IMG/VR virus record: IMGVR_UViG_3300020151_001495
Span: 52,131 to 116,130 of that record
DNA length: 64,000 nt
From: a virus
Lineage: Duplodnaviria > Caudoviricetes
Direction: 5' to 3' (one strand)
The first letter of the stretch is position 1; every line of letters begins with the position of its first letter. The position numbers and the translations under genes are program-made. Below, one piece after another: positions 16,866-52,319 of this stretch. The notes beneath the pieces are model-generated. The model searched no databases. It worked only from the letters and a program-made list of their open reading frames with translations, and had not been told where the DNA came from.

Positions 16866-16939
16866 AGCCCAAGGTCGGACTTGAACCGACGACCTACGGT
16901 TTACAAAACCGTTGCTCTATCCAGCTGAGCTACTCAGGC
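16866..16939 (-). tRNA. tRNA-Thr(TGT)
   Basis: Cloverleaf; ACGGT TT TGT AA ACCGT. Confidence 0.95.
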
Positions 16940-17202
16940 ATATCTTCGGGATTCTCCAAGTCTACTGGAAATAAACATGGATGGCATTCTTCATCAATTA
17001 AATAGAAGGATGTTCTGTATAATTCTTCAGGAGTATATTCAGGATTGTTTGATGCATCTATCTGAATATATGGATCCTGTTGCATTATATGAGGAATCTC
17101 TTCAAATGTAAAAGGAACATTGTTAATGAAATACATTTCCACAATTTCATTGTTGTAGAAACAATAGTTAGATGAAATTTTGTATTTCATTATAGTATCC
17201 AC
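16930..17202 (-). CDS. Conserved cyanophage hypothetical protein
   Basis: MYFINNVPFTF...YLIDEECHPCLF; last 10 nt lie inside tRNA-Thr. Confidence 0.7.
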   Translation of the reverse strand: MDTIMKYKISSNYCFYNNEIVEMYFINNVPFTFEEIPHIMQQDPYIQIDASNNPEYTPEELYRTSFYLIDEECHPCLFPVDLENPEDMPE

Positions 17203-17224: not shown

Positions 17225-17342
17225 CTCCCCCGATAGGACTTGAACCTATAACCCATCGGTTAAGGAAAAAACTGGAATCGAACCAGAACTAAAGGAACCT
17301 TCTTTTCCACAGCCGATTGCTCTGCCATTGAGCTACAGGGGA
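17225..17342 (-). tRNA. tRNA-Asn(GTT) interrupted in the anticodon by a 46-nt insert (exons 17309-17342 and 17225-17262)
   Basis: Without the insert it is a 72-nt canonical tRNA: TCCCCTG TA GCTC AATGGCA GAGC A ATCGG CTGTTAA CCGAT GGGTT ATAGG TTCAAGT CCTAT CGGGGGA G, with the Asn G73. Confidence 0.9.
17263..17308 (-). ncRNA. Mini-tRNA-shaped intervening sequence
   Basis: GGAAAAGA AGGTTCCTTTAGTT CTGG TTCGATT CCAG TTTTTTCC T. Confidence 0.8.
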
Positions 17343-17379
17343 ATAAATAGTTGGTATTAATTTAAAAAGTTATACCAAC
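17342..17379 (+). promoter_or_regulatory. Late promoter and 8-bp hairpin abutting the HNH start codon
   Basis: AATAAATA at 17342-17349; GTTGGTAT(17350-17357)/ATACCAAC(17372-17379). Confidence 0.6.
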
Positions 17380-17709
17380 ATGAATAAAAAAGAAACTAGA
17401 ACTTATGCTGATAGAAAAGCAAAAAATCCTAACTGGGCTAAAAAGATGACAGAAAGAGTATCTGCAACTAGAAGAAAAAATGTATCTTTAATTAAAGAAG
17501 AAGCTGGAGGAAAATGCTGTATGTGTGGATACAACAAATGCACGGCAGCACTAGAGTTTCATCATTTAGACCCAGATGCTAAAGAAGGAGGAATTATTGG
17601 TTCCACTGCATCTTTAGCAAAGCAAAGAGAAGAAGCAAAAAAATGCATTCTTGTATGTGCAAATTGTCATCGTGAAATTCACTCTGACTTATCTATGTAT
17701 CATAGATAA
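17380..17709 (+). CDS. Free-standing HNH endonuclease, putative homing endonuclease
   Basis: CCMCGY...LEFHHLDP...CILVCANCHREIH. Confidence 0.9.
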   Translation: MNKKETRTYADRKAKNPNWAKKMTERVSATRRKNVSLIKEEAGGKCCMCGYNKCTAALEFHHLDPDAKEGGIIGSTASLAKQREEAKKCILVCANCHREIHSDLSMYHR

Positions 17710-17715
17710 AAATTA

Positions 17716-17926
17716 TGGTAGGTGGGGATAACTTTACCTATGTTATCCCTCTTTACTTCTCCAAGCCTTGGCCTAAAGGGGTATTTGGCACCTACGATTT
17801 TAAGGGCAAGGATGTCCACCTACGATAAAATCTACGATGTGGCCGAGGGGATCCTTTGTTTAATACAACGTTCCTTGTTGTACCCTTTACTACAGCATTC
17901 TGGTTTATCTTTCCAGTGCCACTAGC
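17716..17926 (-). ncRNA. Unidentified structured RNA of about 210 nt
   Basis: Several stems (GCACTGG/CCAGaaTGC, TACAAC/GTTGTA, GGGATAAC/GTTATCCC), three ATCGTAG repeats, ends in CCACCTACCA; ends approximate. Confidence 0.55.
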
Positions 17927-17998
17927 ACCTCTGTCTAGGAATCGAACCCAGTTTCCAAGTGCATTGTCTGCCTGTCCTTACCAATAGACTACCAGAGG
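17927..17998 (-). ncRNA. tRNA-like element with an unpaired anticodon arm
   Basis: Acceptor CCTCTG/CAGAGG, D arm with TGG, T arm CTGGG TTCGATT CCTAG; positions 27-31 and 39-43 do not pair. Confidence 0.7.
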
Positions 17999-18406: not shown

Positions 18407-18459
18407 AGTGACTCCTCTGTTTGAGCATCGTTGATAGGCTTGAGGAGTATTAATTGTAT

Positions 18460-20718: not shown

Positions 20719-20789
20719 TAGGTGAAGAAGGAATCGAACCTCCGTAATTCAGTTAATCGCTGACCGCTCTGCCACTGAGCTATCCACCA
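20719..20789 (-). ncRNA. Non-canonical tRNA-like gene (loop CG-ATT-AA)
   Basis: Intact D and T arms; U1:U72 and G27:A43 mismatches; G at position 33. Confidence 0.7.
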
Positions 20790-50850: not shown

Positions 50851-52319
50851 AATTCTTTCTTAAAATTTATCGGAATAATTTCATAATCAAAATTTTCTTG
50901 TGAATATATTTTAATTCGTTCAATCAAGTGATTTAAAGTGTAATTTCTATTTTCTCCTTTTGAAAAATCATCAGCAATATCAAATAAAGTTGCTGTTGAT
51001 TTGTTATCACTTTTTCTCAATACTCTACCTATTGATTGCAGATTTCGTATTCTAGATTTTGAAGGAGATGCGAAAATAACATTATGTAAATTTTTTATAT
51101 TAATACCAGTAGAAAATGTTCCGTAAGATGCAATGATGATGGCATTTTTCTCAATTTCTGTGAGAGAACGTATTAGTTCTCTTTCTTCAGTCTCTACCCC
51201 ACCATACACAAAAAATACTTTTCTATTGGATCCTACCTCACTATTTATTAAATCAAATAAAACTCTACCATGTTTTTCTACCATGGCAAAAAGAACTAGA
51301 GTATTTCCTTTTTGATTTATAGCAAGATTTTTAATATATTTGTTTCGTCGTTCATGGCGACATATGTAATCCATTTCTTCTTGATACGACTCAAATGACG
51401 AGTAACCATATTGCAATAAGAGGATATTAATCTTTAAATTAGAAAGGTGTCCTTTTTCAATTAATTTTTTAGTTTTGACCACTTTATTCACAGGACCGAA
51501 TAAACCCTCTAAAATCAACTGGTTTACGTTCGTTCCATCAAGGGTTCCCGTGAATCCAATTCTGTGCTTGCAGTTATGAAGTTTTGTCATTATTGAAGTT
51601 AATGACTTAGCTTTAAACAAATGAGCTTCATCTCCAATAACAGCATCATATTTTTCATACCAATTTTTTGGCATTTTGTATATTGATTGCCAAGTTGTTA
51701 TTGTAACTGGTTTATTGGAATTTTTTATTTTGCCTGAATAAATTTTATGACAGTTAGATTCTGAGTCCCAACCATAATCATCAAAATCTTTTGTTAGTTG
51801 TTCTACCAGTGAAGTTGTAGGTACGATAATTAATGTGTTGTAATTCTTTGCAGTGTAATATCGTACAATAGAATAAATCATCAAAGATTTACCAGAAGCA
51901 GTTGGAGAAAGTAATAACTTTCTTTTATTTCTTAATGCTTCATATATTGCCTTATATTGATAATCTCTGATCTCTAACGGAATATGTAAACTTTTGATGA
52001 AATCAACTAAACCTTCAGGAGAAATATCATCAGAAATTTCATTTGGCATTCCATAGAATTTATTGTCTTTATCAACATAAGTATATCCTCGTTGACAAAT
52101 CCATTCGGTAAGATACTTATGTAACCCACAATAAATTAATCCATTTAATGGACTGAATAGTTTAATTTTTCCATCCCATAATCTCTTTTTAAACTGAGGC
52201 ATAAACTTTGCCCCAGGAACATCAAAACTAAAATATTCTGATAATTCATATTTTATATGTGGTTCGCACTCTACGGTGAGATAAATTTCATTTTTCTTTT
52301 GAATAATGATATCTGTCAT
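50847..52319 (-). CDS. uvsW: RNA-DNA/DNA helicase UvsW
   Basis: RDYQ, SPTASGKS, DEAH, TGT, QSIGR. Confidence 0.95.
   Translation of the reverse strand: MTDIIIQKKNEIYLTVECEPHIKYELSEYFSFDVPGAKFMPQFKKRLWDGKIKLFSPLNGLIYCGLHKYLTEWICQRGYTYVDKDNKFYGMPNEISDDISPEGLVDFIKSLHIPLEIRDYQYKAIYEALRNKRKLLLSPTASGKSLMIYSIVRYYTAKNYNTLIIVPTTSLVEQLTKDFDDYGWDSESNCHKIYSGKIKNSNKPVTITTWQSIYKMPKNWYEKYDAVIGDEAHLFKAKSLTSIMTKLHNCKHRIGFTGTLDGTNVNQLILEGLFGPVNKVVKTKKLIEKGHLSNLKINILLLQYGYSSFESYQEEMDYICRHERRNKYIKNLAINQKGNTLVLFAMVEKHGRVLFDLINSEVGSNRKVFFVYGGVETEERELIRSLTEIEKNAIIIASYGTFSTGINIKNLHNVIFASPSKSRIRNLQSIGRVLRKSDNKSTATLFDIADDFSKGENRNYTLNHLIERIKIYSQENFDYEIIPINFKKEL

Follow-up and report, generated by a model that had tools for sequence, protein, structure and literature searches.

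A putative homing-type HNH endonuclease gene linked to tRNA-Asn in the tRNA cluster of a T4-like cyanophage

The tRNA cluster of a T4-like cyanomyovirus (Kyanoviridae-like) raises the question of why a small gene for an HNH endonuclease lies back to back with a tRNA-Asn gene that is itself interrupted in its anticodon loop. The stretch of DNA analyzed, referred to below as the window, comprises 64,000 nucleotides (nt), positions 52,131 to 116,130 of IMG/VR record IMGVR_UViG_3300020151_001495, a 116-kb record estimated to be 63% complete. Its tRNA cluster is encoded on the - strand. An initial annotation of the window had proposed that the endonuclease and the interrupted tRNA form a collaborative homing unit, in which the enzyme cuts uninterrupted tRNA-Asn genes of co-infecting phages and the insert gives the carrier immunity. 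The reading favored here, with a probability of roughly 0.6, is that this is a free-standing, homing-type gene for an HNH endonuclease, expressed late and specialized on the tRNA-Asn locus. The 46-nt insert, one of a broader class of nested tRNA-like inserts, is probably carried along by linkage rather than serving as the shield of the nuclease.

Loci for comparison were gathered in different ways. Relatives of the HNH gene were collected with the gene itself, giving 80 IMG/VR loci and the isolate genomes S-WAM2 and S-H38, which were scanned by tblastn and ARAGORN. Loci for the empty-site comparison were collected with the flanking open reading frame (ORF) of 90 amino acids (16933-17202) as the probe. 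A further sample, blind to the HNH gene, was obtained by scanning IMG/VR for two T-loop motifs 26-34 nt apart and then running ARAGORN with introns allowed. Counts of the association between insert and HNH gene are confounded by the way in which the loci were gathered and by shared ancestry, and no p-value was taken as evidence.

The HNH gene (17380-17709, + strand) encodes 109 amino acids and, as the initial annotation had it, is the only credible + strand gene of the tRNA cluster: it is the sole + strand ORF there with homologues, and it starts 38 nt from the 5' end of the tRNA-Asn gene on the opposite strand. It lies between that 5' end and a structured RNA region, rather than inside an intron or intein. 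Its product matched HNH families of PHROG with a best E-value of 3.8e-23 (PHROG 2255), and its Pfam HNH match was weak (E-value 0.012, under the cut-off). Residues C46, C49, H61, H62, C93, N95, C96, H97, and H101 were invariant across 24 aligned relatives. They comprise the catalytic motif EFHH(61-62)...CANCH(93-97)REIH(101) of a beta-beta-alpha-metal nuclease and the two CxxC pairs (C46/C49 and C93/C96) of a structural zinc site. An AlphaFold2 model built from the alignment of the 24 relatives (predicted local distance difference test score, 86) placed a long, basic, helical N-terminal arm before a beta-beta-alpha HNH core (strands at 58-62 and 89-93, helix at 94-101). The protein is a minimal form, from which a C-terminal DNA-binding tail is absent. 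The top Foldseek rows were all HNH nucleases (Cap5, McrA, the Cas9 HNH domain, T4 endonuclease VII, the Gme nickase, and T5 SciA); none qualified as a close solved structure, as the best E-value was only 0.04, none was significant, and sequence matches to PDB were marginal. The protein is predicted from these features to be an HNH (His-Me finger) endonuclease.

Association with tRNA-Asn extended well beyond the window. In the cyanophage clade of the HNH family (37 distinct proteins, support 98/92), the gene always adjoined tRNA-Asn(GTT), and three arrangements were found. In arrangement A (31 loci), the HNH gene precedes the tRNA, and the HNH stop codon is a TAG at tRNA positions 8-10. In arrangement B (15 loci), the tRNA comes first and the HNH cassette follows about 35 nt downstream. 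Arrangement C is divergent, with an intact tRNA in four loci (L007-L010) and with an insert in three loci and the window. The three arrangements were intermixed within one subclade of the tree. tRNA-Asn also adjoined more distant HNH relatives in non-cyanophage contigs (L060, L069, L071, L072, L074, and L078), and relatives in Lak megaphages lay beside tRNA-Asn as well. The tie to tRNA-Asn that was proposed from the window is thus seen in about 50 cyanophage loci and in non-cyanophage and Lak relatives. Other branches of the HNH family adjoined tRNA-Cys or tRNA-Ile, and more distant tblastn relatives were next to tRNAs in the enterobacterial phages Henu11, Ro1, and Kenya-K36.

The HNH ORFs of arrangements A and B have no stop codon of their own (L027-L056, e.g. 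L029:3295-3297, and L013:3316-3318), and terminate at a TAG that corresponds to U8-A9-G10 of the next tRNA. Because this stop lies inside the tRNA, processing by RNase P would leave a non-stop HNH messenger RNA. Distant HNH ORFs (33-44% identity) that end at the 5' end of tRNA-Pro or tRNA-Thr were also observed (L094:819-1106, L100:2984-3163, and L102:345-521), which suggests that sister HNH subfamilies are tied to these other tRNAs.

Close relatives of the window showed what the locus looks like when the HNH gene is absent. Sixteen loci with the flanking ORF at 76-92% identity had no HNH gene beside tRNA-Asn and an intact tRNA-Asn (L091, L094-L109), and among the flanking-ORF loci the HNH gene and the insert were found only in the window-lineage contigs L090, L092, and L093. 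The tally in the synteny group of the window was 4 loci with the HNH gene and an interrupted tRNA versus 16 without the gene and with an intact tRNA. In the alignment of these regions (alignment A4), a block of ~490 base pairs (bp; 17225-17712) with sharp boundaries stands in place of the 72-nt intact tRNA-Asn gene. The flanks of the block, which end in CCACCTACCATAA on the side of the structured RNA and begin with TACCGATAAATAT on the downstream side, are ~90% identical to L091, L095, and L106. Within the block are the HNH cassette, in inverted orientation, and a tRNA-Asn allele that is divergent and carries the insert. Its acceptor sequence is TCCCCTG versus TGGAGTG in the HNH-less relatives, the T arm also differs, and the spliced window allele is 0.68 identical to the L095-type allele.

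The putative mobile cassette of the initial annotation is visible as a block, including the tRNA-Asn allele, that is present or absent among ~90%-identical relatives. Such a presence/absence polymorphism characterizes free-standing homing endonuclease genes, and the pattern of the block is that which would be expected of one moving with its neighboring target gene. The tRNA-Asn gene of L094 (L094:2406-2478) is chimeric: its first ~60 nt correspond to the clade II HNH-linked allele and its 3' end is of the L106 type, and mismatches in the T and acceptor stems at the join place a crossover inside the tRNA near the T-loop. Both this chimera and the joint replacement of tRNA-Asn allele and HNH gene are consistent with co-conversion as the putative mode of inheritance.

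The leader of the HNH gene resembles that of several T4-type endonuclease genes. A late-promoter-type box, AATAAATA (17342-17349, + strand), fits the late motif NATAAATA published for cyanomyoviruses (PMC2984593). This box had been described as touching tRNA base 1; it is present, but it shares one base with the tRNA instead of just adjoining it, its first base being the complement of tRNA base 1 (17342). It is followed by a leader hairpin (17350-17379, + strand) in which GTTGGTAT (17350-17357) pairs with ATACCAAC (17372-17379). The stem has the 8 bp reported earlier, and its 3' end is directly at the ATG. Folding of the leader (17342-17395) gave -10.0 kcal/mol and a z-score of -3.5, with 2 of 200 shuffled sequences folding as well. 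An RNA starting at 17356, the position of a T4-type late start, was predicted to be unstructured, and the hairpin needs a start upstream of ~17356.

Neither form of the box was significantly enriched in the window: AATAAATA had 10 matches versus 9.5 expected and TATAAATA had 8 versus 6.3 expected, all 8 of the latter on the gene-rich - strand. The late box is credible because it is conserved in relatives, not because it is frequent in the window. Among 31 distinct upstream regions of cyanophage relatives, the homologous position held TATAAATA in 28 and NATAAATA in 30. The hairpin was found in all 31, ending at the ATG or a few nt from it, with a mean z-score of -3.6. Its arms varied by group with the pairing retained (TGGTAGAA/TTCTACCA, GGTATAA/TTATACC, and TGGTAT/ATACCA). 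Comparison of the window with L007 showed that a 7-nt deletion had joined AATAAAT and TTATAAATA at the late box.

Box and hairpin at the ATG occurred together in 30 of the 31 upstream regions, so the T4-style late control that was claimed for the window corresponds to a conserved module. In the window and in the relatives, the box is just upstream of, or inside, a hairpin that would mask the start codon, a design documented for I-TevI, I-TevII, I-TevIII, segB, and Aeh1 mobE (PMC2988022). In arrangements A and B, the cassette runs in the direction of the tRNA operon; in the window it is antisense, and no sigma-70-type promoter was found on the + strand upstream of it. Because the window cassette is antisense to its neighbors, its hairpin may be left over from the co-directional arrangements of relatives.

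The tRNA-Asn(GUU) gene of the window (17225-17342, - strand) was not detected by default ARAGORN or by Rfam. When introns were allowed, ARAGORN detected a tRNA from 17342 to 17225 with a 46-nt insert, mislabelled as tRNA-His i(38,46). Deletion in silico of these 46 nt (17263-17308, - strand) from between CTGT and TAA yielded a canonical tRNA-Asn(GTT), confirming the interruption of the anticodon loop by a tRNA-like insert. The outer tRNA has the acceptor stem TCCCCTG/CGGGGGA and discriminator G. The insert has an acceptor-like stem of its own (GGAAAAG/TTTTTCC) and a T-arm-like hairpin (CTGG-TTCGATT-CCAG). Its exact sequence was confined to three IMG/VR contigs of the window lineage, and L007-L010 had intact tRNA-Asn homologues at the same place.

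A group I intron was rejected as the identity of such inserts, as no Rfam match was found in the window region, L073, L077, L058, or L047. This null result is informative because the same tool detected a group I intron in the tRNA-Leu of L118. Related cyanophage contigs have a ~200-nt insert in tRNA-Leu(UAA) (L118:2192-2474, L116, L119-L122, L127, L142, and L146), and the one tested, that of L118, proved to be a genuine group I intron (Rfam RF00028, 58.5 bits). As to a phage ligase that could seal tRNA halves, the 116-kb, 63%-complete record gave no RtcB match; RNA_lig_T4_1 also had no match there, in a search that was uninformative because control genomes gave none either. A second tRNA-Asn-like gene in the window (20719-20789, - strand) has the anticodon loop CGATTAA (G33, anticodon ATT). 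The normal CTGTTAA loop is thus found in neither Asn-type tRNA gene of the window, because one is interrupted and the other has CGATTAA.

Whether the insert is tied to the HNH gene was examined in the relatives. Intact tRNA-Asn genes were beside the HNH gene in about 50 cyanophage loci, versus interrupted ones in three loci and the window. The sister clade L007-L010 (79-81% protein identity) has the same back-to-back arrangement with an intact tRNA-Asn. Lak-A1 and Lak-B1, two Lak megaphage loci that both have the HNH gene next door, share their tRNA-Asn exons, but the tRNA gene is intact in Lak-A1 and interrupted in Lak-B1. Immunity at the level of the tRNA allele was likewise rejected: tRNA-Asn alleles do not fall into distinct HNH-adjacent and HNH-less groups, and a single allele was found both with the HNH gene adjacent (L001/S-WAM2) and without it (L103). 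The co-occurrence of the HNH gene with interrupted tRNA-Asn, on which the initial annotation had staked its proposal, thus went the other way, with intact neighbors predominating, and self-immunity conferred by the insert is not supported in the form in which it was stated.

The insert is one of a class that extends beyond HNH-linked tRNAs. The HNH-blind scan yielded 23 intron-type ARAGORN calls, of which ~18, from many isotypes, read as nested tRNA-like inserts in the anticodon loop. The window insert belongs with them, as it lies in the anticodon loop of a canonical tRNA and has its own acceptor-like stem and T arm. Its architecture recurred in L058, L073, L077, L088, L089, and Lak-B1 and in the ~18 HNH-blind tRNAs. 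An HNH-family ORF was found by profile search in 3 of 16 nested-insert loci (one of them marginal) and in none of the other 13. Two loci in which tRNA-Asn is interrupted at the same CTGT/TAA site (L214 and L242) had no HNH-family ORF within ~14 kb. Because 13 of the 16 loci were without an HNH-family ORF, and because "enigmatic introns", one of which "itself may encode a tRNA", had already been noted in the tRNAs of Lak megaphages (Devoto et al. 2019, PMC6784885), the class of inserts exists independently of the HNH gene. The nested inserts of the blind scan (L171, L174, L177, L200, L206, L212, L214, L227, L234, L237, L242, L251, L269, L277, and L285) often come directly after TGT, and several of the inner elements end in an encoded CCA.

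Four more unrelated lineages also had an insert at the same CTGT/TAA site beside an HNH relative: L058 (96 nt), L077 (120 nt), Lak-B1 (141 nt), and L073 (747 nt). Removal of each insert in silico gave a canonical tRNA-Asn, and each has an intact sister. The tRNA-Asn gene of L073 (L073:2842-3663) has an insert that consists almost wholly of an HNH ORF with a zinc-ribbon/helix-turn-helix (HTH)-like tail and that has a T-arm-like hairpin at its end. TAG probably acts as a sense codon in this ORF, which would otherwise be broken.

Four other explanations can be weighed against a homing-type gene with a passenger insert. The collaborative homing unit of the initial annotation holds that the HNH enzyme recognizes the uninterrupted anticodon arm of tRNA-Asn, that the 46-nt insert splits this site and protects the carrier, and that the two spread together. 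It draws on the strict coupling of HNH gene and insert in the synteny group of the window, on an exon anticodon arm (TCGGCTGT followed by TAACCGA) that matches exactly the intact arm found in relatives without the HNH gene (L095 and L098, for example), on the same-site inserts beside HNH relatives in L058, L077, and Lak-B1, and on the classical intron-encoded layout of L073. However, the coupling in the synteny group amounts to one evolutionary event, whereas the HNH gene is beside an intact tRNA-Asn in ~50 cyanophage loci, in L007-L010, and in Lak-A1. The Lak-A1/Lak-B1 pair keeps the HNH gene with the same exon sequence whether or not it is interrupted, one and the same allele is seen both next to an HNH gene and without one adjoining, and nested inserts occur without HNH in many tRNAs, including the tRNA-Asn of L214 and L242. 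Nor is the insert a group I intron, given its 46 nt and lack of an Rfam match; no route for its splicing is known, and the search of the 63%-complete genome turned up no RNA ligase (the RNA_lig_T4_1 part of this result being uninformative). What survives of the proposal is a free-standing, homing-type gene tied to tRNA-Asn, and what is not supported is the insert as a shield; as a whole it seems rather unlikely. A broader version, in which a new kind of mobile element of phage tRNA genes has the HNH family as one half and the nested inserts as the other, is quite unlikely. The insert would be a tRNA-shaped "intron" placed after TGT in the anticodon loop, with the HNH protein as its homing endonuclease, though both roles are doubtful. 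Its removal or tolerance by way of the tRNA-processing enzymes of the cell, rather than by self-splicing, is no less speculative, and it is similarly doubtful that L073 represents a fused form of the element and the window, L077, L058, and Lak-B1 a split, collaborative form.

The remaining two explanations take the HNH protein out of homing altogether. A domesticated nuclease, inherited with the tRNA cluster and serving the phage (for example in damage to host or competitor DNA, in recombination, or in an interplay with defenses at tRNA genes), would fit a catalytic core that is under strong purifying selection in phages distant from one another, the low specificity suggested by a minimal protein without a DNA-binding tail, and structural neighbors that include the nickases Gme HNH and T5 SciA (with weak E-values). 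It accounts poorly for a gene that ~90%-identical relatives may have or lack, the adjacent allele being replaced with it, for the tight wedging against one particular tRNA in three arrangements, and for a regulatory design typical of selfish endonuclease genes, and is very improbable. Action on RNA is extremely unlikely. On that account the protein would process the tRNA-Asn precursor, as a nuclease or as a maturase for nested inserts, instead of cutting DNA; constant adjacency to tRNA-Asn, the overlap of the arrangement A ORF with the tRNA 5' end, and the L073 ORF inside its insert, like an intron maturase, are in keeping with it. Most of the partner tRNAs are intact and need no such step, however, all detectable relatives and structural neighbors are DNA nucleases, and the nested inserts are mostly without an HNH protein.

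As a late-expressed, homing-type endonuclease gene, the HNH gene would be transcribed late in infection from its own NATAAATA late box. The late transcript would begin inside the 5' arm of the leader hairpin and leave the start codon free, and longer read-through transcripts would fold the hairpin and not be translated. In mixed infections, the predicted enzyme would nick or cut HNH-less genomes in or next to the tRNA-Asn gene, and recombinational repair would then copy the HNH cassette together with the tRNA-Asn allele of the donor. The insert, which lies within ~80 nt of the cassette, would travel with it and would not be needed to protect the carrier genome.

Several observations weigh against this account. 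Cleavage, timing, and inheritance are inferred. The box of the window has A in place of the first T of the consensus, in addition to its lack of enrichment. The HNH gene of the window is antisense to all of its neighbors, and no upstream + strand transcript that would need the hairpin is evident. The cyanophage HNH proteins are without the C-terminal HTH-like tail of the longer relatives, and the site specificity of a protein of ~100 amino acids without such a tail is left unexplained. The three arrangements around tRNA-Asn could stem from local inversions of one linked unit rather than from repeated homing. Finally, same-site inserts beside the HNH gene in five lineages, with the HNH gene inside the insert in L073, exceed what a passenger insert predicts.

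Among known systems, T4 SegB is the closest precedent. SegB is a free-standing GIY-YIG homing endonuclease encoded in the T4 tRNA cluster, with a preferred site within the T2L gene for tRNA-Asn; it drives the inheritance of neighboring tRNA genes and has a predicted late promoter and hairpin (PMC2330249). T4 itself keeps SegB-cleavable sites, and tRNA processing is believed to dampen expression of segB (PMC2330249). The HNH gene shares with segB the position inside a phage tRNA cluster, the connection to tRNA-Asn, the predicted late promoter with hairpin, and, in its family, an ORF end entangled with the adjacent tRNA and its processing. It differs in nuclease type and in that the activity and homing of SegB have been demonstrated, those of the HNH protein being predicted; in addition, the HNH family tracks one tRNA, tRNA-Asn, across very distant phages. 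Small HNH ORFs among phage tRNA genes are also known from the T5 tRNA cluster (F-TflI together with F-TflII and F-TflIV, cited in PMC2330249).

Other systems share single features of the locus. Like F-CphI and the psbA group I intron of S-PM2 (PMC6083498, PMC2988022), the window has, in a T4-like cyanophage, a free-standing endonuclease gene next to a gene with an ORF-less insertion. Unlike in the window, the nuclease motif of F-CphI is of the Endo VII type, and the insertion that it pairs with, a group I intron, is self-splicing and lies at the cleavage site. The insert of the window is 46 nt long and tRNA-like, has no known splicing route and no group I match in Rfam, and is absent from most HNH-bearing relatives; across relatives, the endonuclease does not co-occur with the interrupted allele as in an F-CphI-type pair. 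The late box is placed as in I-TevI, I-TevII, I-TevIII, segB, and Aeh1 mobE (PMC2988022), such that late transcripts would start in, or 3' of, the 5' arm of the hairpin. In contrast to these genes, no clear Shine-Dalgarno sequence is sequestered in the window, the stem abuts the ATG, the cassette is antisense, and the start is predicted. The "enigmatic introns" of Lak phages (PMC6784885) resemble the window in having a tRNA-like insert in the anticodon loop, and the tRNA-Asn of Lak-B1 is interrupted at the same CTGT/TAA site with an HNH relative adjoining. That study drew no link between the inserts and an endonuclease, and the insert of the window is a minimal, 46-nt form, in a cyanophage.

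Other structured elements lie near the block. A ~210-nt stretch (17716-17926, - strand) between a tRNA-like element and the HNH gene is ~90% conserved in HNH-less relatives, in which its counterpart directly precedes tRNA-Asn. A manA motif was rejected as its identity, since it had no Rfam match even at an E-value of 10; a true manA motif was present in the relative L094. The adjacent tRNA-like element (17927-17998, - strand) is degenerate: its Rfam tRNA score of 27.1 bits is just below the gathering score, its acceptor, D, and T arms are intact, and its anticodon arm is broken. It is conserved in relatives, where ARAGORN called it tRNA-His(atg). An abiF RNA motif (18411-18447, - strand; Rfam, 46.8 bits, gathering score 37) is directly upstream of tRNA-Gly. 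S-CREM1 has this pairing in its annotation, and L094 has it as well.

The locus adds a well-documented case to the short list of free-standing endonuclease genes in phage tRNA clusters. The layout of the cassette is unusually clear, with a late box, a hairpin whose arms vary by group, and an ORF whose stop codon is supplied by U8-A9-G10 of the following tRNA. The HNH lineage supplies a concrete force that could drive the mosaic turnover of tRNA-Asn alleles among marine cyanophages, and natural pairs with and without the HNH gene are available for homing experiments. In addition, the unexplained tRNA "introns" of Lak phages are linked to cyanophages and to a candidate endonuclease partner, which makes the nature of these inserts testable.

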